Positions 2,385 to 43,067 of a DNA stretch of 43,067 bases are shown piece by piece. The first letter of the stretch is position 1. Each line of letters starts with the position of its first letter. The DNA comes from an uncultured Candidatus Saccharibacteria bacterium (GTDB lineage: Bacteria; Patescibacteriota; Saccharimonadia; Saccharimonadales; 2-12-FULL-41-12): NCBI GenBank assembly GCA_964609815.1, contig CAZSRV010000002.1, positions 1-43,067 on the forward strand, given 5' to 3'. The notes beneath the pieces are model-generated. The model was not told the origin of the DNA. It did no database searches and saw nothing but the letters and a program-made list of their open reading frames with translations. The position numbers were made by a program, and so were the translations under genes.

Positions 2385-3038
2385 CTATGGTGTAAATGTA
2401 AAGGCAGGCAGAATTATAGTGTTTAGGTCACCTATATATTTATCAACTTCAGAGCTAATTTTGACTGTTTTCTCACGCATCGGTAGTACAATCATTGACC
2501 CACGAACATTATTTCTAAGCTCACCGTCAAACCTAGTCCCTAGCACGTTTGGTAATCTTTCTAACCTAAAGGCATTAGCCGAAGACTTACCGGCTTTTAC
2601 GTTAGATTCCATAGCTTTTACAACTGTGTCATAGGCTTGATTAACTACTTCAACCTTTAGTGGATAAGTAGCGTTTTGATTACCATCAACTATGCCAGGC
2701 TGCATCAGTAATGTTAAATCTTTGTCGGTCTGCTTTAGTGAGCCACTCCATGTCTTGGGATATTCAAATACAATAGCACCTAATATGTCGCTACCTTTAA
2801 ACGTCCTATATGGCTGTTTCTCTTTTATCTGGAATTCATTGTCTTTTTCTGATGAATTTTTATCTACAGCTACTGCTACAGCACTGTCAATCTTTGGCTG
2901 AACATTAGTTTTGTAATCTTCCATACCCATGTAGGCCCAAGCGCCAAACCCTAGAGCGCCAAAAAACAAAAGACCCACTGCGATCAGCGGAATAAGCAAA
3001 ACATTAATCTCGCCACGCTCGTTATTTAGCTTTGTCAT
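2385..3038 (-). CDS. hypothetical membrane-anchored protein (one N-terminal TM helix, extracytoplasmic domain)
   Basis: 217-aa ORF with TM segment INVLLIPLIAVGLLFFGALGFGAWAYMG. No recognisable motif. Confidence 0.5.
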   Translation of the reverse strand: MTKLNNERGEINVLLIPLIAVGLLFFGALGFGAWAYMGMEDYKTNVQPKIDSAVAVAVDKNSSEKDNEFQIKEKQPYRTFKGSDILGAIVFEYPKTWSGSLKQTDKDLTLLMQPGIVDGNQNATYPLKVEVVNQAYDTVVKAMESNVKAGKSSANAFRLERLPNVLGTRFDGELRNNVRGSMIVLPMREKTVKISSEVDKYIGDLNTIILPAFTFTP

Positions 3039-3747: not shown

Positions 3748-4852
3748 TGTTTCTCTCCATTGTTATTTTACCGTCCAAAAACTGCAAATCCAAACTATCA
3801 TAAACCATCGCTTGCTTGGCGGTTTTAACTATCTCGCCTTTTGGCGATTTAACTAGCGCATAGCCTTTGCTTAGCGGCAATCTAGGGTCAGATGCCATTA
3901 ATAAATTATACGAGCTACTCAACCAAAGTTCCGCATTAGCTATCTTTTGTGCCAAACTAGCACTCAGATCATTCTTATAGCCTGAAATATCACGCTCAAT
4001 ATGCGAAACAAAGCCATTCAATAAAACTGCCAATTGATTTTTTATTAGTGAGATTTGCGCTTTCTGTTCGTTCACATCTGGTACCAAAATCTCGGCCGCA
4101 TTACTGGGTGTACTAGCTCGCTGGTCAGCTACCATTTCACTCAGTGATACATCTTGTTCATGACCAATCGCTACCAAAGTTGGTATTCGGCTAGCTGCTA
4201 CCGCCCGCACTAATCGCTCGTCATTAAAAGCCATCAGATCATCAGCCGACCCACCGCCACGGATAATCGCCAAAGCTTCATAATTAGCTTGGTTGACTTG
4301 ATTAATAGCCGAGATTATCTGACGTGGCGCGTTAGCACCCTGCACTAGCACATCATACAAGTCACATTCTAAAAACGGCCAACGTTTGTTAATAATCTTC
4401 ATAAAATCACCATAACCAGCTGACTGAGCTGATGAAATAATAGCCACTTTACTTGGCACTTCAGGTAATTGGCGCTTGCGTGCCACGTCAAACAAACCTT
4501 CAGCCTCAAGCTTCTTCATAAGCATTCTAAGAGCTCTGGCTAGTGAACCTTCGCCGACTACCATCACCTCATAAAACTGCACACTAAAATTAAACTGCGG
4601 ATGCAAATAAGGCCGACCGCCTACTTCGGCCATCATGCCATCTTCTAGTGGCCCAGGCAAACTATCTGTCGTACCAAAAAACCTAACCGACGCATAATCA
4701 TCTTTTAGGTCAAAATACACCCATCTGCTTTTACTTACCTTAAAGTTGGCTATCTCACCGATAATTTTGACGTCAGGATAACTAGCATTGATTGTCTGGT
4801 TAAATATCGCTACAAAATCCGATACACCAAAAACCGGATCTTGACCAATCAT
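3731..4852 (-). CDS. xseA: exodeoxyribonuclease VII large subunit (short form)
   Basis: 373 aa with an N-terminal OB fold (VKIIGEIANFKVSKSRWVYFDLKD) and a catalytic core (IIRGGGSADDLMAFNDE, IGHEQD). Confidence 0.85.
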   Translation of the reverse strand: MIGQDPVFGVSDFVAIFNQTINASYPDVKIIGEIANFKVSKSRWVYFDLKDDYASVRFFGTTDSLPGPLEDGMMAEVGGRPYLHPQFNFSVQFYEVMVVGEGSLARALRMLMKKLEAEGLFDVARKRQLPEVPSKVAIISSAQSAGYGDFMKIINKRWPFLECDLYDVLVQGANAPRQIISAINQVNQANYEALAIIRGGGSADDLMAFNDERLVRAVAASRIPTLVAIGHEQDVSLSEMVADQRASTPSNAAEILVPDVNEQKAQISLIKNQLAVLLNGFVSHIERDISGYKNDLSASLAQKIANAELWLSSSYNLLMASDPRLPLSKGYALVKSPKGEIVKTAKQAMVYDSLDLQFLDGKITMERNSGKEL

Positions 4853-5901
4853 TTGGTTAGCTCTTCGCTTTTTATGCCAGCATTTCGCAGGAACCGCTGA
4901 TATAAGAAGTAGCCAATCGGCAATTGCATAGTCATGCTAATAATGCGGTACATGATAGTGGCCGGCAAACCAATTGACGGCGGCACTCCAGCCACGGCCA
5001 AGACACCCGTCATCAAAGCCTCATAAACACCGGCACCTCCTGGGAAAACCGATATCAGCCCAGCAAAGTTAGCCACCGCATAGGCTAAAATTACCGCTCC
5101 AGGGTTTACCCACTGACCAAAAGCGACAAATACCAAGTATAACGTCATAATCTCGGCCGAAATAGCTAGAAGACCAAAAAGCAAAGGTCTCTTTAGCTGC
5201 TTTCTATTCTTCCTTAGGATCTTATATTCTTCATGAAGGTCCATAAACAGCTTACTAACGCCAGCCAGGTTAATAGTTTCCGGGTGTTTGGGCCTAATAG
5301 TATGAATTATCTTGTTAATAAACTTAGTCAGCCCAGTTGTAAACGAATTAATACGATTTTTGTTGCCAACTACATAAATCGCTAACACCGAACCAATAGC
5401 TAAAGCCGTACCAATGGAACTAGCTACCAAAATCGTAAAATTATTGGCATCACCGTGCAGGGTCAACGCAATCACCCCCACCAGTAGCAATATCTGGAAA
5501 GCAAAAAATACCGCCACAAACCTCATCATATGAGTCAATGTAGCCTGCGAAGCATTGATTTTGAACTTACGCATTCTGTAACTAAAATATGAAAATCCAG
5601 CCACGCCAGCACTCGGGAAAACCGTGTTAACAAAAGTTAGCTCAGAAGTAATGCCAAACATAGTCTTGTAGCGCACCGATCGACCCAAAATATTAAAAAT
5701 GCTCCTATAAAGTTGTGTGTAGCCATGATAAATAGTTATTTGAGTCAACACCATGAACAGCAGTACCCAAACTTTTACGCTCTTTAGGTTGGACAAAGTT
5801 TCCATAATTGACTCACGAGCAAAAAAGATCAACAAAAATATACCCAAGAACGTTACTATACTCAGGATAAGCCTGACTTTCTTCCCTTTTTGCTCGGCCA
5901 T
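4849..5901 (-). CDS. polytopic membrane protein, LPG-synthase-TM / flippase-like (UPF0104) family
   Basis: 350 aa, about 8 TM helices, with the FPGGAGVYEA-type motif near the C-terminus that is typical of this family. Confidence 0.5.
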   Translation of the reverse strand: MAEQKGKKVRLILSIVTFLGIFLLIFFARESIMETLSNLKSVKVWVLLFMVLTQITIYHGYTQLYRSIFNILGRSVRYKTMFGITSELTFVNTVFPSAGVAGFSYFSYRMRKFKINASQATLTHMMRFVAVFFAFQILLLVGVIALTLHGDANNFTILVASSIGTALAIGSVLAIYVVGNKNRINSFTTGLTKFINKIIHTIRPKHPETINLAGVSKLFMDLHEEYKILRKNRKQLKRPLLFGLLAISAEIMTLYLVFVAFGQWVNPGAVILAYAVANFAGLISVFPGGAGVYEALMTGVLAVAGVPPSIGLPATIMYRIISMTMQLPIGYFLYQRFLRNAGIKSEELTK

Positions 5902-22124: not shown

Positions 22125-22799
22125 TCAGAGTGAAGCTGCAATTATAGCAGCTGTTTCGGCTCGGAGCGTAAAATCTCCTAGACCAATACTTTGATAATCG
22201 TTATTGGCAAAGAATTGCAATTCATCTGAGCTCCAACCGCCTTCTGGACCAATCACAAAACCAATTTTACTTTCTGAATCCAAAGTTATTTTTTGATTGC
22301 CTTGATGACAGACATAAATTTTAACATCATCATATTCTGCCAAAGCTTTCTTTATATGAACCGGCTCGCGAACAGACGGAATATCACTACGCCAACATTG
22401 TTCGGCGGCCTCACTAACAATTTTTTGAGCCCGTTCGTGATTAAAATCTTTCTTGATTGTACGATCAGTTATCAGCGGCACAAAATTAGTCACGCCTAGT
22501 TCAGTAGCTTTTTGCAATATTAGTTCATTATTATCTTTTTTGAGCAGGCTCCAAAACAAGTAAACATGCTGCTTGGGTAAATTACGCTCTATTTCTGTTA
22601 CTAATGTTAAATGAGCTTCTTTATTGGTAATTTTGGCCACCCGGTACAGTCTATCTGTCTGCTGACCGTCAAATAATACCAGCTCCTGACCTTCCGAAAA
22701 CCGAAGCACCCGATTCCATTGCCAAAGTAAAGCCTCATCATGTAGCCAAAAATCTTTTTTTAATTCTAGCTGTGGTGTATAAAATCTATGAACTCGCAT
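22125..22799 (-). CDS. rsmE: 16S rRNA (uracil1498-N3)-methyltransferase
   Basis: MRVHRFY start (ATG at 22799, while the track start is an upstream TTG). C-terminal SPOUT motif GPEGGWS...LGDFTLRAETA. Confidence 0.85.
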   Translation of the reverse strand: MRVHRFYTPQLELKKDFWLHDEALLWQWNRVLRFSEGQELVLFDGQQTDRLYRVAKITNKEAHLTLVTEIERNLPKQHVYLFWSLLKKDNNELILQKATELGVTNFVPLITDRTIKKDFNHERAQKIVSEAAEQCWRSDIPSVREPVHIKKALAEYDDVKIYVCHQGNQKITLDSESKIGFVIGPEGGWSSDELQFFANNDYQSIGLGDFTLRAETAAIIAASL

Positions 22800-22803
22800 A
22801 AGC

Positions 22804-24075
22804 TTATTGTCGCACAAGTATCGCTAGCGACTCAATATGTGGCGTCCTAGGGAAAAAATTATAACCCACGATACTATCTATTTTATATTCACCCTGCAGG
22901 AACTTTAGGTCACGTACCTGAGTTGACGGATTACAACTTAGATAAATAATTTTTGGTGGTCTGACTTCTAGTAACTTATTTACCAAATCCTTATGTAGTC
23001 CAGCCCTGGGTGGATCACAAATTACAACCGAGTCGGAATCTATATACTCTAATGCCTTCTCGCTAGGGGCATGAATAACTTTCACATCACGACCAGCAGC
23101 ATTCACGGTAGCATATTTTATATTAGATTCATCTAGCTCTACTAATAATTTAGGATTATCAGTCCCTAAACCAATAGTACCAACACCACTGTACATGTCG
23201 GTTACTGGTAAATCACTGGCGACTTTATTTATGGCCGTCATTGCCTGGTTAAAAATATCAGTATTAACCTGAAAAAAACTAAAAACATCATATTTTATAG
23301 CCACATTATTTACCCGTCCAGTTAATATAATATCACCGTAAGTGTATAGGTCTTTAGTCCTAACGCTAGCTGGACTTTTGGGGTTAGAATAAACAATCAC
23401 TACACCCTGACAAACTTTATAAAGTTCTGGGATGTCTGAAAAATCAGAATCTTTAACAAACAGCGCGCAAACCACATTACCATCATTGTCGCAGCGCAAA
23501 ATTAGACTTTTTAGATCACCAGCTCGAACCTTATTTTGATCTAACGCAGCACAAACCCTACCAGCTACTTCATCTATTTCTGGCCTGGCTATACTACTAC
23601 CCTGAACAATTTGCTTATGATGAGTTCCACGATTATAAAGTGCCAAATGTAGCCCATCGTCATCACCCCAGAAGCTATACTCCATTTTGTTACGATAACG
23701 CCACTGATGCTCTGGAGCTATAAACTTTAGCTCACTATTATATTCCACAGATTCACGCTGATAAATCTCGGCTAGAATTTCTTGTTTGTGCTTATTTTCG
23801 GCCCCATAAGTCATCATCTGCCAAGGACTAGTGCTTAGGTACAAATCATCCTTGGGCTCAGTTCTATCTGGTGATGGGCTAATTATTTTAACAGCTAGAC
23901 CTTCGGCATAATCTTTCTTTAGTTTAGTTGTCTGGACCGTAACTTCTTCGCCTGGCAAAGCGTTCCAGACAAAGACTTTACGACCATCGGGCAATTCTCC
24001 CATTCCTTGTCCACCAAAGACAAGTTTACTAATTTTAACCTGAACTAATTGATTTTTGTTAGACCTCTTGGGCAT
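22804..24075 (-). CDS. TrmA/RlmD-family RNA (uracil-5)-methyltransferase with N-terminal TRAM domain
   Basis: TRAM-like N-terminus (VKISKLVFGGQGMGEL), FFQVN, DMYSGVGTIG, DPPRAGL, YLSCNPST. Confidence 0.8.
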   Translation of the reverse strand: MPKRSNKNQLVQVKISKLVFGGQGMGELPDGRKVFVWNALPGEEVTVQTTKLKKDYAEGLAVKIISPSPDRTEPKDDLYLSTSPWQMMTYGAENKHKQEILAEIYQRESVEYNSELKFIAPEHQWRYRNKMEYSFWGDDDGLHLALYNRGTHHKQIVQGSSIARPEIDEVAGRVCAALDQNKVRAGDLKSLILRCDNDGNVVCALFVKDSDFSDIPELYKVCQGVVIVYSNPKSPASVRTKDLYTYGDIILTGRVNNVAIKYDVFSFFQVNTDIFNQAMTAINKVASDLPVTDMYSGVGTIGLGTDNPKLLVELDESNIKYATVNAAGRDVKVIHAPSEKALEYIDSDSVVICDPPRAGLHKDLVNKLLEVRPPKIIYLSCNPSTQVRDLKFLQGEYKIDSIVGYNFFPRTPHIESLAILVRQ

Positions 24076-24077
24076 TA

Positions 24078-25061
24078 TTATTTACTAAAAGCTGCAAATA
24101 CTATAAGTACAATCAAAAACTTAGATATTTGGTCAATCCTAATATAGCGTTGTTCAAAAGTCACATGTTCGTAACGAGCTTTTTTGTTGATTGATGATCG
24201 CAAGTTTATAGTGTTCGCTACCCAAGTTAAAACTGAAACAGCAACCGCTGCATAAGCATACCAACTAAATCGCTCGGCACCGATTAGAGTAACTGTTACT
24301 AGGCTAGCCAGCATTGGTAAATGAGCTAATACCATTGTTAGTGTAGAGGCCCAAAAACCAAATTTGTGCGGAGTTTTGTTGCCAGCGTTTTCACGCTCGG
24401 CTACCCAACCAAATATAGAGCCAGCAAAGGCTAGCAGCCCAACAGTTACTAGAGTAGCAATATCTTGCACGCCGGCCATCAAAGTAACGGTAGATACCAA
24501 TATCGCACCAATAAACCCATAAAACAACCAACGATAACCAGAAATTCCGGCCTTTACAGTAGCCTCATAGCGCCTAAACAGCTTAGAGCCAATCATTAAC
24601 GAAATAATTGTTGTTAGACCCAAAATAACCACCAACAACCAACGCAGGTCAACATAACCCAGAACCTCAGTAGCGTTACCTAGTGTCACATGATCAGTAA
24701 CCGTAAAAGTATCTTTGGCCTGATAGCTCATTAGAATACCAATCTTGGCTACTTTAACAAAAACTAACGTTAGGATGATTAAAATAATGCCGGTTAGTAC
24801 ATTAGAGATATGCATACCGCGCAAACGATCCATTGGCGTTAGCTCAGGACGTTTGTTTTTAGTAGTTGCCTTAGATACAACTGATTCGCTAGCACTGGCT
24901 GGCTTTTTGGCCTTGGCGCTAGCCGATTTTTTAACTGGCGTCTTAGCAGCAGCTACAGTCTTTGCAGATGCCGAAACAGACTTTTTAGCATTAGCTACAG
25001 TTTTTTTAGTTGTTGGTTTTTTCTTGGCTGCCGGCTTTTTGGCAGTAGTTTTGGTTGCCAT
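24078..25061 (-). CDS. heliorhodopsin-like 7-TM protein fused to an N-terminal Lys/Ala-rich low-complexity tail
   Basis: Seven TM helices with a long TM1-TM2 loop. FRRY...YRWLFY...QDIATL...FGWVAER and the last helix YIRIDQISKFLI align, from memory, with heliorhodopsin 48C12 (FKRY...FRWVEY...ADIVAL...FGWLQEK; YIVLSLVAKSAL). The tail reads MATKTTAKKPAAKKKPTTKK.... Confidence 0.5.
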   Translation of the reverse strand: MATKTTAKKPAAKKKPTTKKTVANAKKSVSASAKTVAAAKTPVKKSASAKAKKPASASESVVSKATTKNKRPELTPMDRLRGMHISNVLTGIILIILTLVFVKVAKIGILMSYQAKDTFTVTDHVTLGNATEVLGYVDLRWLLVVILGLTTIISLMIGSKLFRRYEATVKAGISGYRWLFYGFIGAILVSTVTLMAGVQDIATLVTVGLLAFAGSIFGWVAERENAGNKTPHKFGFWASTLTMVLAHLPMLASLVTVTLIGAERFSWYAYAAVAVSVLTWVANTINLRSSINKKARYEHVTFEQRYIRIDQISKFLIVLIVFAAFSK

Positions 25062-25125
25062 ATTAAATTTTCTCCTTAACTCCTAATAATACTAATATAC
25101 CATACCTGGTTATATATCTGTCGGA

Positions 25126-26655
25126 TTATTTAACTAATTTTAGACGATTTACCAACCAATCACGTGGCAAAATACTCAAAAACCAACCTGCTCGTGGACC
25201 AGCGGTCTGACCAATCAAAACCGTATAAAGTGTTACAAACATGTCTTTAGGGCCAAAATCATCGGTTTTAAACTGGTAGATTGCCTTATGAAACCACTCA
25301 CCGCCTGCGTCGCTTGGCGCATCACTAACTACGCCAGCCAGGTTACTCAAAAAAGTTTTTTGAATATCATTCAACTCACCAGGATTTACATCTTCTCGCA
25401 AAGAAAATCTGACTTTATCTGGTGCCCATTTTTGTAACCAATTATCAATATAATTTAGCTCTTTATAAATAGTTTCTTTCTGTTGGCCGGCGATTTCAGC
25501 ATGTTCGGTGCGTCCGATAATAGCAATTGTTTGGTCAAGATCTTTTAATGCCGATTGGTAACTAGCCACCAAGTGAGAAAACGGTACATTAGAAATTGTA
25601 TTTTCGGCCAAAGACGAACTACATAGATATATTAAAGCCTCGTCTTCGCCAGTTTTATCAGACTTGGCCAATAACTCAGCATATTCATCTATTAGACGAA
25701 CTACACCCTCTTCTTGATCAAAAAATAATTTCTTATTAGGGGGATATCTATAAATAAAATATCTAACAATTTCTGGCGGCAAAACACTAAGTAAATCGGA
25801 CACATTTACTGTATTGCCAGCGCTTTTACTCATTTTTTTAGTTTCGCCAGCCCGATTAATAAACTCATAAGGTATCGGATATGGCACAGAACCACCAAAT
25901 ATCCGAACCACCAATTCTTTGCCAGTATCATACGAGCCTCCTTTGGTGGCATGATCACGACCAAAAGGCTCAGCGTTTACTCCAGCCAACTGCCAACGCG
26001 CCGGCCAATCCAGTCGCCAATCTAGTTTTACCTGACCAGACTCGTAACTAATAGTCACCTCCTGACCATTTTTATCTAGATAAATTATCGTTTTAGCGCT
26101 AGTATCTATACTGACAAAATTACGTTTTTTTAGATAGCCATCTTCATTAACCTGGACCGGTGACCAATCAGCATTTAACTGACGACCCGAAGCTTCAGTA
26201 ATGCAGTTTTTGACCTCATCAATATTTATCAGAGCTTTTTCTATAGATTGCGTAAAATAGCCCGAACGATACTTTTCATGGCTCCGAATAACCTCCATAT
26301 CTATACCTAAGACATCTAGGTTAGATAAAAAGTCATTTAAAAAATAATCAGCATAGGACCCAGACCGTCCGTCAGGCGACGGAATATCACACAAAGATTG
26401 TCCCAAATATTTCTCAAATGATGGATCAATACCGACCGGAACTTTCCTAAACTGATCTAGGTCATCTACAAAATGCAGATGCCTCACCTGTCGCCCGCGC
26501 TTTTTTAGCTCGATATAAATCGCATCGGCGGTCAAAACCTCACGCAAAGTGCCAACATGATATTTGCCAGATGGTGACACACCGGAACTAACAACAATCT
26601 CACCACCAGGATGAGCTCGCTCTAGCTCATCGGCTATTTTTTCTGTCCAAAACAT
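25126..26655 (-). CDS. lysK: lysine--tRNA ligase, class I (archaeal type)
   Basis: GVSPSGKYHVGTLREV (HIGH-type motif), KKMSKSAGN (KMSKS), and a size of about 509 aa. Not the class II LysS architecture. Confidence 0.85.
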   Translation of the reverse strand: MFWTEKIADELERAHPGGEIVVSSGVSPSGKYHVGTLREVLTADAIYIELKKRGRQVRHLHFVDDLDQFRKVPVGIDPSFEKYLGQSLCDIPSPDGRSGSYADYFLNDFLSNLDVLGIDMEVIRSHEKYRSGYFTQSIEKALINIDEVKNCITEASGRQLNADWSPVQVNEDGYLKKRNFVSIDTSAKTIIYLDKNGQEVTISYESGQVKLDWRLDWPARWQLAGVNAEPFGRDHATKGGSYDTGKELVVRIFGGSVPYPIPYEFINRAGETKKMSKSAGNTVNVSDLLSVLPPEIVRYFIYRYPPNKKLFFDQEEGVVRLIDEYAELLAKSDKTGEDEALIYLCSSSLAENTISNVPFSHLVASYQSALKDLDQTIAIIGRTEHAEIAGQQKETIYKELNYIDNWLQKWAPDKVRFSLREDVNPGELNDIQKTFLSNLAGVVSDAPSDAGGEWFHKAIYQFKTDDFGPKDMFVTLYTVLIGQTAGPRAGWFLSILPRDWLVNRLKLVK

Positions 26656-29502: not shown

Positions 29503-30252
29503 TTAAGCTTCAGGCTGAGGTTGATCTATGCCAAGTGATTTTAATATAACTGAAGAGCCAGATTTATTAAGCCCTTTTTGGATTGCATCAACGCCCAAAA
29601 GCACTTTGACATCACTATAGGGAGAATATATATGTTTGGCTAATAACACTCCACAACCTGGAGCTTCTTTGACAAAATGTTGTTGCACTGTAACAGCATT
29701 CGTCCCTCCTATTGGTTTACCAAACAACCGAGAATCCGTAGCTACTTCAATCTTGCCAGACCTTTGACTACTTTGGTTAGATATAACATACCGCAAAGGC
29801 ATAGAATCTTCGGCTTCGGCATCGCCAAACAACGCTAGTCTACCTACGTTATGATGTTCTGTTGGTTCGTGCTGCGCAGCAGGATTAAACCGCGGTACAT
29901 CCAGCGGACCAAAGTACTTCGAGGTATCTCGCCTGACCATAACCACAACTGGCTCGCCAACTTTATCTTTGGTAAAAAGCCTAGAGTATCTATTAACATC
30001 AGACTTCATCGCATCACGCTCACCCGGCGCAGACAACGGTCCCGCCATAAAAAAATTAAAAGTCTTCCGGTCTACAGAATATTGTTTGCCTGGTTCAAAT
30101 ACATTAGTGAAATCATTAAACAGTTCAATCTTTCGAGCAATTAACTTACCAATAGAATCTGACACAACATCAATAGACCTGATGTAAGCCTCCGTATTTG
30201 GTGGTTGCATCAAACTAACAACCTCGGGCGTTGACTCTGTCATTCTACTCAT
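29503..30252 (-). CDS. hypothetical soluble protein (about 249 aa), no recognisable family
   Basis: Long ORF. The ATG at 30252 is preceded by cggagagg (SD), while the track start at 30273 is GTG. No TM helix or signal peptide, and no motif I recognise. Confidence 0.55.
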   Translation of the reverse strand: MSRMTESTPEVVSLMQPPNTEAYIRSIDVVSDSIGKLIARKIELFNDFTNVFEPGKQYSVDRKTFNFFMAGPLSAPGERDAMKSDVNRYSRLFTKDKVGEPVVVMVRRDTSKYFGPLDVPRFNPAAQHEPTEHHNVGRLALFGDAEAEDSMPLRYVISNQSSQRSGKIEVATDSRLFGKPIGGTNAVTVQQHFVKEAPGCGVLLAKHIYSPYSDVKVLLGVDAIQKGLNKSGSSVILKSLGIDQPQPEA

Positions 30253-30305
30253 AAAACCTCTCCGTTCGCCCACACCAATTATTACTTACAGTAAACATTA
30301 TACAA

Positions 30306-37489: not shown

Positions 37490-38248
37490 TTATTTAACTA
37501 TGCCCTCACCCCAGTTGGCAAAGATGATAATTATAAATACAAGTGCCAAAGCTACAAATATTATCTGACGCCTAACCAAAACCGATAGGCGTTCTTGCTC
37601 GTTTAGATAATACAAAACACCCAGTGTATATCCAATAACTGTCAGTAGTAACGATATCTGTGGCACACCACGATAAAACAGTAGCCAATGACCTAGAACC
37701 CAAACCATACAAGCCGAGAAAAATGTCCAGAGCCATGAATAGCTTAACGCATAAGGCTCATCAAATGATCCAAAAAAGTGCCGTGCTGAAAAGTAACTAA
37801 CTATAGACACCAACAGTATATAAACTGTTAATGGCGCCGACTCAAACACCAAGAAGACCGCCGTTACGCCAAGTGCCAAAGCTATCAAAGACTGCATTGT
37901 CACCCTAAAGACTGATTCACCAGGCTTGATGAATAACATCCAGATCTCAAATACGGCCAGCCAGATCAGACATGTTGCAAAAGAATCCCTAGACATGACC
38001 ATAAACCCAACTACCGACAAACTAACAATTAAATCAACAGCATTGGTTCTCATATGAGCCAGCCAGTGTCTAGGCTGCACGGCAAACATTCGCCATTTAC
38101 TAAGTATTACTAAAACCACAGCCGCCAAAGCTACATCTAGCCTAATAAGCATATAAGCTAAAATAGGCACAATCATTACCAAAACTATATGCATTAGGTG
38201 GGCAAAACCTTTGGATGGTTTTACCTTTTTTAGAACTTTTTTAACCAT
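37490..38248 (-). CDS. hypothetical polytopic membrane protein (about 7 TM)
   Basis: 252-aa hydrophobic ORF with no recognisable motif. Confidence 0.5.
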   Translation of the reverse strand: MVKKVLKKVKPSKGFAHLMHIVLVMIVPILAYMLIRLDVALAAVVLVILSKWRMFAVQPRHWLAHMRTNAVDLIVSLSVVGFMVMSRDSFATCLIWLAVFEIWMLFIKPGESVFRVTMQSLIALALGVTAVFLVFESAPLTVYILLVSIVSYFSARHFFGSFDEPYALSYSWLWTFFSACMVWVLGHWLLFYRGVPQISLLLTVIGYTLGVLYYLNEQERLSVLVRRQIIFVALALVFIIIIFANWGEGIVK

Positions 38249-42495: not shown

Positions 42496-43067
42496 CTAGT
42501 ACTGAGTTATCTGGATCCAAACTTTGTTCTCTGGAGTTTTTTGGCTAGTGGCCTTGCCTAGAACTGCTCCAACTGTCGGTGAATCCGAACTAGTAATCTG
42601 TCCATCTATCGATGACACCAATAAATCACCACTACTAATAACTGCTAAACTATCCGTACTGGCCAGTACTCTACCACCAACGGCTACCTCTACCATATTT
42701 CCAATAATGGTATCACTCATAACCACGCCGATAACTTTAGTATCGCCCACACTAACTGACTTTATAACCGATCCGTCATTCCTGGCCTGATCAATCACTA
42801 CCACTTGACCTTTTATTAGATTCTCGCCTGCTTTATACTTCTGAGTTATGGCATTTTCGGCCTCGTTAGGAGTGCCATCTAATAGTAATCCGCCAGAGGT
42901 TACTACCTTGCCAGCTACATGGATGTTACTAGCAAACTGCGCACTACCAGATACTGTCATATTATTAGTAGTTAGGTTGCCAGTGACATTCAGGCTTGTA
43001 GCGCTTAGATTGCCAGACACACTGACAGTGGTGAAGTTACCTGCTTGCAAGCTGTTTATGAGTGCCT
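42496..43067 (-). CDS. C-terminal part of a larger fibre/beta-helix-like surface protein (5' end outside the window)
   Basis: The frame stays open to the window edge (ALINSLQAGNF...). Repetitive SGNLSATSLNVTGNLTTNNMTVSG segment, then a beta-rich C-terminal domain (GDLLVSSIDGQITSS...GAVLGKA). Confidence 0.5.
   Translation of the reverse strand, partial: ALINSLQAGNFTTVSVSGNLSATSLNVTGNLTTNNMTVSGSAQFASNIHVAGKVVTSGGLLLDGTPNEAENAITQKYKAGENLIKGQVVVIDQARNDGSVIKSVSVGDTKVIGVVMSDTIIGNMVEVAVGGRVLASTDSLAVISSGDLLVSSIDGQITSSDSPTVGAVLGKATSQKTPENKVWIQITQY

Follow-up and report, generated by a model that had tools for sequence, protein, structure and literature searches.

A divergent heliorhodopsin of Candidatus Saccharibacteria with an aspartate on helix 7 as its candidate counterion

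In the heliorhodopsin (HeR) 48C12, Glu107 and Ser237 form direct hydrogen bonds with the protonated Schiff base of retinal, and Ser237 is the structural equivalent of bacteriorhodopsin Asp212 (PMC7049168). An uncultured Candidatus Saccharibacteria bacterium carries a gene whose product breaks with this arrangement at both positions. The gene is complete, begins with ATG, and occupies 24078..25061 on the minus strand of the stretch analysed here, the first 43,067 nucleotides of contig CAZSRV010000002.1 (assembly GCA_964609815.1), which we call the window. Its product of 327 amino acids has seven transmembrane (7-TM) helices, with Phe180 in place of the helix 3 glutamate and Asp310 in place of the helix 7 serine. 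The question raised by this locus is whether such a protein is a HeR at all and, if it is, whether it could still bind retinal. We find that it is a genuine but divergent HeR of the TM7/Candidate Phyla Radiation (CPR) lineage. We put the probability at roughly 0.6 that the counterion has been relocated from helix 3 to helix 7 in a sensor that still binds retinal, which would be of exogenous origin.

A sequence-only reading of the window had proposed a HeR-like 7-TM protein at this position, and the searches bear this out. Pfam model PF18761 (Heliorhodopsin) scores the protein at 60.9 bits against a gathering threshold of 26.7, with model positions 5-239 of 242 aligned to residues 87-323 (24093..24803, minus strand). 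The same kind of scan of the 327-residue protein, with E-values up to 1 accepted, returned no match to Bac_rhodopsin (PF01036). A phmmer search of PDB sequences gave significant matches to HeRs only (48C12 and TaHeR, E about 2e-6), and hhalign matched a profile of the protein's clade to canonical HeRs with a probability of 100% and E = 1e-41. An AlphaFold2 model built from 22 homologues has a core pLDDT of about 90, with residues 1-66 below 50 and disordered. Superposed on TaHeR by Foldseek, the model reaches a target-normalised TM-score of 0.88 at an rmsd of 2.2 A. The ten top Foldseek matches are all HeRs, TaHeR and 48C12 first, with target-normalised TM-scores of 0.83-0.90 and rmsd of 2.2-3.1 A, whereas type-1 rhodopsins appear with E-values no better than about 1e-2 and target-normalised TM-scores of 0.4-0.74.

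The helices of the model span residues 76-101, 139-158, 175-195, 201-225, 234-260, 267-291 and 299-325. The loop between the first two (TM1-TM2, or A-B loop; residues 102-138, 24648..24758, minus strand) is modelled as a HeR-like beta-hairpin, with DSSP strands at 106-116 and 127-138. A long loop of the HeR kind had been expected from sequence and is present, although its length is about 37 residues and not the 27 or so first given. A positive-inside count on the loops of the model puts 30 Lys or Arg inside and 5 outside; with the N-terminal tail left out of the count, the figures are 9 and 5. This fits the predicted inverted, HeR-type topology with a cytoplasmic N-terminus (N-in) and agrees with the cytoplasmic placement of the N-terminus made at first reading.

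Residue equivalences with 48C12 and TaHeR were taken from HMMER, MAFFT and hhalign, which all agree for helices 2, 3, 4 and 7. The Schiff-base lysine (K241 of 48C12, K238 of TaHeR) falls on Lys314 (codon 24120..24122; all codons of this gene are given for the minus strand). The counterion position (Glu107 of 48C12, Glu108 of TaHeR) holds Phe180 (24522..24524, codon verified), and the Ser237 position holds Asp310 (24132..24134), which gives helix 7 the DxxxK arrangement of type-1 rhodopsins. Both marks of a canonical HeR, the helix 3 glutamate and SxxxK, are absent. R104, W105 and Y108 of 48C12 are kept as R177, W178 and Y181, and D127, W146 and E149 as D200, W219 and E222. The alignment to 48C12 in the sequence-only reading proves correct for these six residues, for Lys314 and for both substitutions, and the codon coordinates that it gave for Asp310 and Lys314 are right. 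Y92 and E230 are also kept, as Y165 and E303. The Arg177-Trp178 "RW" motif of helix 3 (24528..24533) is invariant in two alignments. Further substitutions are S111 to I184, S76 to T150, H80 to S154 and N101 to S174. H23 corresponds to G91 by MAFFT and hhalign or to L94 by HMMER, the register of helix 1 shifting by three residues, and in neither case to a histidine; the loss of both pocket histidines had been recognized correctly. A polar network on the cytoplasmic side, made up of Glu303 (24153..24155), Tyr165 (24567-24569), Ser174 (24540-24542) and Glu222 (24396-24398), maps to residues of the 48C12 Schiff-base cavity and is 94-100% conserved in the clade.

Set against 48C12 and TaHeR (PF18761; PDB 6su3 and 6is6), the protein thus shares the 7-TM fold with its A-B beta-hairpin (TM-score 0.85-0.90), the predicted N-in topology, the position of the Schiff-base lysine and the equivalents of R104/W105, Y92, Y108, D127, W146, E149 and E230. 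It departs from them in Phe180, Ile184, Asp310, Ser174 and Ala246, in the loss of His23 and His80, in a Lys-rich N-terminal tail of 78 residues, in a sequence identity of only about 15%, and in a score below the cut-off of the family's equivalog model.

With type-1 rhodopsins such as bacteriorhodopsin (Asp212/Lys216) the protein has in common the helix 7 DxxxK and a lone helix 7 carboxylate beside a conserved helix 3 arginine. In some type-1 rhodopsins, halorhodopsin for one, the residue at the Asp85 position is neutral. The window protein differs from type-1 rhodopsins in being unmatched by Bac_rhodopsin, in its weak fold matches to them, in its opposite predicted topology, and in having a bulky hydrophobic residue, not Thr or Ser, at the Asp85 position. 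Of the type-1 features considered (PF01036, an extracellular N-terminus, and an Asp85-type helix 3 carboxylate together with DxxxK), only DxxxK occurs in the 327-residue protein. The absence of a Bac_rhodopsin match and the far weaker fold matches rule out a type-1 rhodopsin or a hybrid.

The evidence that bears most directly on the counterion comes from relatives. A search of 1.84 billion cluster representatives with the clade profile brought up 843 proteins at E <= 1e-3, 133 of them at E <= 1e-30. An alignment of 171 sequences was made from 170 retrieved proteins plus a partial TaHeR, and only rows with all three focal positions filled (the helix 3 counterion site, the helix 7 site and the Schiff-base lysine) were counted. 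Sequences with a carboxylate on helix 3 only retain the lysine in 73 cases and have lost it in 20 (20/93). For a carboxylate on helix 7 only, the lysine is kept in 37 and lost in a single sequence (1/38). Carboxylates at both sites accompany a kept lysine twice and a lost one once, and where neither site has a carboxylate the lysine is lost in 24 of 31, leaving 7 that keep it. Of the 119 Lys-retaining relatives, then, 110 have exactly one carboxylate, which is on helix 3 in 73 of them and on helix 7 in the other 37; for carboxylate position within this group Fisher's test gives p = 3e-21, uncorrected for phylogeny. Selection for keeping a retinal Schiff base protonated would be expected to give just this pattern, in which the lysine goes with exactly one nearby carboxylate, on either helix, and is lost when none is left. 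From it we infer that Asp310 is a relocated counterion and that the clade binds retinal.

Trees were built by neighbor joining (NJ) only, with the three focal columns left out and 45 bootstrap replicates, on clusters represented at 50% identity. The helix 7 form makes up a main clade of 31 clusters that includes the window protein and is recovered with at most two intruders in 73% of the 45 bootstraps. In this clade Lys314, Tyr165, Trp178 and Glu303 are 100% conserved, and Arg177 and Ser174 97%. Position 310 is Asp in 97% and Glu in the sole remaining member, hence always acidic, and position 180 is non-acidic in 31 of 31 members. The Schiff-base lysine, universal here, is found in 65% of other relatives. 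Four further sequences with x-D-K at the focal positions fall outside the main clade in at least 82% of the NJ replicates. One of them (P0067) and a related x-D-K sequence (P0171) are both encoded at a lysS-msrA-HeR locus, which points to at least one further origin of the helix 7 Asp form, again at this Saccharibacteria locus. Sequences with D-D-K also exist (P0088, P0151 and P0193), and these could be intermediates.

The mechanism that we propose follows from these substitutions and is put forward conditionally. With Glu107 replaced by Phe180, Ser111 by Ile184 and both pocket histidines lost, negative charge would have left helix 3. It would now lie on helix 7, where Asp310 precedes Lys314 by one turn, so that the type-1 Asp212/Lys216 geometry would be recreated within the inverted HeR fold. 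All-trans-retinal would be taken up from other organisms and would attach to Lys314 as a Schiff base, for which Asp310 would be the counterion and probable proton acceptor. An exogenous source would be required, since no carotenoid or retinal synthesis domains (crt/blh) occur among the 37 window open reading frames (ORFs) scanned with Pfam, which include all those of at least 200 amino acids judged to be real genes, and since the pathway is reported to be missing from Saccharibacteria, whose type-1 rhodopsins load external retinal (PMC9296517). The earlier statement that the window holds no retinal-synthesis gene is thus upheld. Rather than pumping, the protein would sense light slowly or regulate a partner in the cytoplasm or membrane, a role suggested by analogy with characterised HeRs, which regulate glutamine synthetase in one case and an ABC transporter in another (PMC9529153; PMC11109279).

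Several observations weigh against this proposal. The NCBIfam equivalog model for HeR, NF038020, scores the protein at 59.1 bits where its cut-off is 100, which marks a divergent member of the family. Further pocket residues depart from 48C12 (N138 to A211, M141 to G214, I142 to S215 and P172 to A246), and the F206 equivalent, which the ambiguous register of helix 6 places at either V277 or W280, varies in the clade. The covariation, for all its numbers, reflects only about two or three independent switches. Because Saccharibacterial genomes are highly syntenic, the gene's neighborhood is weak evidence for any partner. Finally, the lysine is replaced (by R, T, V, A, L, Q or others) in 46 of 167 aligned relatives with a residue at that position, on many separate branches. 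Most of these have a carboxylate at neither site. The RW motif and the equivalents of Glu149 and Glu230 stay conserved. The lysine-less relatives include P0019, P0022, P0046, P0049, P0078-P0081 and P0094. Repeated loss of the lysine in sister lineages that keep these residues suggests that the scaffold may have a role independent of retinal. Lacking Glu107 with SxxxK and falling short of the equivalog score, the protein is a HeR by fold and homology and not a functional equivalent of the characterised HeRs.

A reading that had been offered from the start as an alternative is a non-photoactive derivative. Such a protein would keep the HeR fold for a retinal-independent role in the membrane, perhaps structural, lipid- or carotenoid-binding or partner-anchoring, with Lys314 and Asp310 paired in a buried salt bridge. 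The remodelled pocket without its histidines, the missed equivalog cut-off, the lysine-less relatives with an otherwise intact scaffold and the absence of retinal synthesis genes among the scanned ORFs would all suit it. HeR hosts, however, normally have no retinal synthesis, and neither do Saccharibacteria whose rhodopsins work (PMC9296517). In 31 clusters less than 50% identical to one another the lysine and the helix 7 acid are both invariant while sister lineages often lose the lysine, and across the relatives the lysine is retained almost only with exactly one carboxylate, the requirement of a protonated Schiff base. For this clade, therefore, we regard a non-photoactive protein as unlikely, at about one chance in five.

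Somewhat less credible is a photoactive protein with other chemistry, in which an inorganic anion in the Schiff-base cavity would serve as counterion, as it does in halorhodopsin and in E107A/Q mutants, or in which the type-1-like DxxxK would allow protons to be moved by light-driven or light-gated transport like that of viral V2HeR3. Pigment is still formed by mutants E107A and E107Q of 48C12, though their Schiff base stays protonated only with an anion supplied from outside, and chloride is the surrogate counterion in these and in TaHeR E108A (PMC9385722). Some viral HeRs are reported to transport protons (PMC9448325). Seven relatives retain the lysine with a carboxylate at neither site, and the polar chain of the cytoplasmic side (Y165/S174/R177/E222/E303/D310) is conserved. 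Against this, position 180 is hydrophobic (F/L/V/I/A/Y) and 184 is Ile, surroundings that suit an anion badly; with an Asp of its own only one turn away from the lysine, the protein would have no need of a surrogate anion; and the sequence has no sign of a hydrophilic path across the extracellular half. We consider this reading improbable.

The second unusual feature of the protein is its N-terminal tail, residues 1-78 (24828..25061, minus strand), which is rich in Lys, Ala, Thr and Ser, disordered and predicted to be cytoplasmic. Its basic residues number 21 (20 Lys, 1 Arg) and its acidic residues 3, for a net charge of +18 and a calculated pI of 10.7. A Shine-Dalgarno sequence, AAGGAG (25072..25077, minus strand), stands 10 nt before the ATG, with a second such sequence, TAGGAG (25080-25085, minus strand), farther upstream; both were read from the sequence. 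Its position supports the upstream start, and hence translation of the tail. A start at Met77, which would omit the tail, is ruled out by this placement together with the MAT..KK start, shared by every one of the 21 homologues that the first search gave, and the Lys-rich frame preserved in homologues. No tandem DNA repeat was found in the tail-coding region, and among window ORFs of 90 amino acids or more no second one has a terminal segment as rich in Lys/Arg and as free of acidic residues. Terminator-like matches between 21000 and 27600 number 13 where 4.4 are expected. Four of the 13 lie on the plus strand, antisense to the tail region (24888-25060), and are most likely artefacts, their T-runs being the complement of AAA and AAG codons.

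Of 162 full-length relatives, 117 have a tail of at least 40 residues ahead of TM1 (median 65 residues, with 19 K/R and 1 D/E, mostly with an MA start), and 29 have 15 residues or fewer there. A Lys-rich tail is also present in the canonical E...SxxxK orthologue P0021. A co-occurrence of the tail with the Glu-to-Phe and Ser-to-Asp pair, which the first reading had suggested surveying for, is thereby ruled out: since the tail is common in Saccharibacterial HeRs, canonical ones included, it is independent of the change in the pocket. Some close pairs of HeRs (P0056 and P0106, P0059 and P0067) differ by the whole Lys-rich segment, after a common MSKK or MAKK start; barring miscalled starts, the tail has been gained or lost as a unit. 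By these comparisons it is an old, labile, lineage-wide feature of Saccharibacterial HeRs, unrelated to the counterion switch.

Bacterial tails rich in Lys, Ala and Pro that resemble histone H1 occur at the C-terminus of mycobacterial HupB/MDP1, in AlgP and in chlamydial Hc1, and bind DNA and other polyanions. The window tail is like them in composition and high positive charge. It is unlike them in being fused to an integral membrane protein of photoreceptor type, and the likeness is one of composition, not sequence homology. "Histone-H1-like", the term first applied to it, is thus apt for the Lys-rich composition and the charge and fails as a statement of homology, residues 1-78 having no Pfam domain and only insignificant PDB matches (E 0.85-6). 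The tail probably contacts some polyanionic partner in the cytoplasm, such as RNA or DNA, ribosomes, or acidic lipids. That tethering of the nucleoid or of ribosomes and RNA is the protein's main function, the 7-TM domain being a light- or ligand-controlled anchor, is very doubtful in spite of the tail's charge, composition, disorder, predicted location and wide retention and of an RNA methyltransferase gene 2 nt downstream in the same orientation, given that close relatives do without the tail, that acidic membrane lipids would be an equally good target and that proximity to RNA enzymes is perhaps mere synteny. The window also encodes an MprF-like LPG_synthase_TM protein (lysyl-phosphatidylglycerol synthase/flippase region) at 4849-5901, minus strand; it alters membrane surface charge, which could be relevant to a polycationic, membrane-proximal tail.

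N-terminal extensions of HeRs have been described before, as MORN-HeR and Zn-ribbon-HeR fusions and as variants ntv1-10 (Bulzu et al. 2021, PMC8612252). These share with the window protein a cytoplasmic extension on a HeR core, with its hint of signaling or partner recruitment; the extension here differs in being low-complexity, polycationic and disordered, without a recognisable domain. HeRs of Saccharimonadia have likewise been reported, with 80 occurrences and SLVAK, SLIAK and SFVAK as common helix 7 motifs (Chiriac et al. 2022, PMC9166423). They belong to the same phylum, and P0021, P0020 and P0018, examined in this work, share the locus and the kind of tail. The combination of D-Q-I-S-K with a hydrophobic helix 3 position does not appear in the main text of the survey. 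A literature search for a HeR with DxxxK or a helix 7 counterion, or for a Lys-rich HeR tail, found none, the CPR motifs in Supplementary Table S15 of PMC9166423 lying outside its coverage. The HeR with a candidate counterion on helix 7 is apparently an undescribed, recurrent variant of a known family.

The gene sits in a conserved setting. Upstream, 64 nt from the HeR start, is a class-I lysyl-tRNA synthetase (LysRS) gene (25126..26655, minus strand; PF01921, 336 bits). Downstream, 2 nt after the HeR stop, begins a gene for a TRAM-domain m5U RNA methyltransferase of the RlmD/TrmA family (22804..24075, minus strand; PF01938 and PF05958), which overlaps rsmE (22125-22817, minus strand; PF04452) by 14 nt. 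The gaps of 2-64 nt and the class-I LysRS are as first described, while the methyltransferase, then called an rRNA enzyme, belongs to a family that acts on rRNA or tRNA. Consensus scans of the 64-nt lysS-HeR gap found neither a minus-strand terminator-like site nor a promoter, and promoter-like matches in the region do not exceed shuffle expectation. Co-transcription of the HeR gene with its neighbors is plausible; the constitutive expression proposed at first reading is a guess.

When one genome of each species was scanned, five relatives came to light, every one of them in a metagenome-assembled genome (MAG) of Candidatus Saccharibacteria with the gene order of the window. The collinear genes encode ribosomal protein S2, Tsf, RRF, RseP, a CPBP protease, GreA, LysRS and HeR, followed by the TRAM/m5U RNA methyltransferase, RsmE, a PD-(D/E)XK protein, SerRS, HPF and SecA. 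Neighbor proteins are 45-89% identical to those of the window and the HeRs only 31-54%, and all five HeRs have a hydrophobic residue at 180 together with D...K. Canonical-type orthologues occupy the same slot elsewhere (P0021 with E/S/K, P0020 with D/S/K, P0018 with D/G/K at the focal positions). As canonical, D-type and second x-D-K HeRs all occur there, the window HeR is a positional orthologue at a fixed Saccharibacteria locus (greA, lysS, often msrA, HeR, m5U RNA methyltransferase, rsmE), and its housekeeping setting is ancestral, not the peculiarity of this gene that it had seemed. Recent horizontal acquisition is ruled out by this conservation across the lineage and by a GC content (41.2%) at the window average (41.3%). 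A protein identical to the window product is present on two other metagenome contigs. The source project of one relative was traced, to wastewater and river water.

Two neighbors recur. The m5U RNA methyltransferase gene lies 3' of HeR in 8 of 11 distinct loci, and msrA (PF01625) lies immediately upstream of HeR in 8 of 11 (L001 7371-7847, L002 7313-7792, L003 7382-7879, L004 7408-7839, L010 5439-5969, L012 840-1319, L013 2583-3071 and L014 2045-2533); a tblastn search found no msrA anywhere in the 43-kb window. HeRs work with products of adjacent genes in several described systems: glutamine synthetase (PMC9529153), an ABC transporter (PMC11109279) and photolyase (in a paper cited there). The window gene resembles these in being tightly packed and in the same orientation as its neighbors, and regulation by direct binding is the working model. 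It differs in that msrA and the m5U RNA methyltransferase are outside the ten neighbor groups of PMC11109279. MsrA is a possible functional partner, linked to photo-oxidative damage. A link of HeRs to photo-oxidative stress has been proposed (PMC8612252, as cited in PMC9166423), and the msrA neighbor in relatives fits it, as a lead only. A bolder extension, which we think quite improbable, is that a whole lineage of HeRs in obligate episymbionts has reinvented the helix 7 Asp counterion with new photochemistry, Asp310 accepting the proton directly, and that the tail couples light at the membrane to RNA, ribosomes or the nucleoid, or to the adjacent MsrA or m5U methyltransferase. Were it true, Saccharibacteria would have a light-controlled link from photo-oxidative conditions to translation or repair.

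Some further features of the region were seen in passing. The slot between greA and HeR holds class-I LysRS (PF01921) in the window and in most relatives; in L003 (5205-6773) and on the P0018 contig it holds a class-II synthetase of D/K/N type (PF00152 plus OB fold), which looks like non-orthologous displacement within Saccharibacteria. Four minus-strand ORFs of 217-256 amino acids (29503-30273, 1641-2360, 2385-3038 and 37490-38248) have no Pfam match at E = 0.01, and one of them sits between frr and rseP. At the window edge, a 184-residue ORF (42496-43050, minus strand) that adjoins parA/parB matches Phage_cement_2 at 24.0 bits, exactly the gathering score.

Little is settled about what HeRs do, and identifying the group that accepts their proton has proved difficult. 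Nature offers, in a clade whose sole carboxylate near the Schiff base is on helix 7, a ready-made counterion experiment within the HeR fold. This clade also exposes a bias in surveys: SxxxK serves as the criterion for bona fide HeRs (PMC8612252), and SxxxK is read as HeR and DxxxK as type-1 in PMC9166423, so that rules of this kind would miss or misfile helix 7 Asp HeRs. The fixed Saccharibacteria locus allows a clean comparison of orthologous E-type, D-type and lysine-less HeRs, and in the recurrent msrA neighbor the proposed connection of HeRs with photo-oxidative stress gains a specific candidate. The rule of exactly one carboxylate or no lysine may serve as a simple predictor of retinal binding in divergent HeRs.

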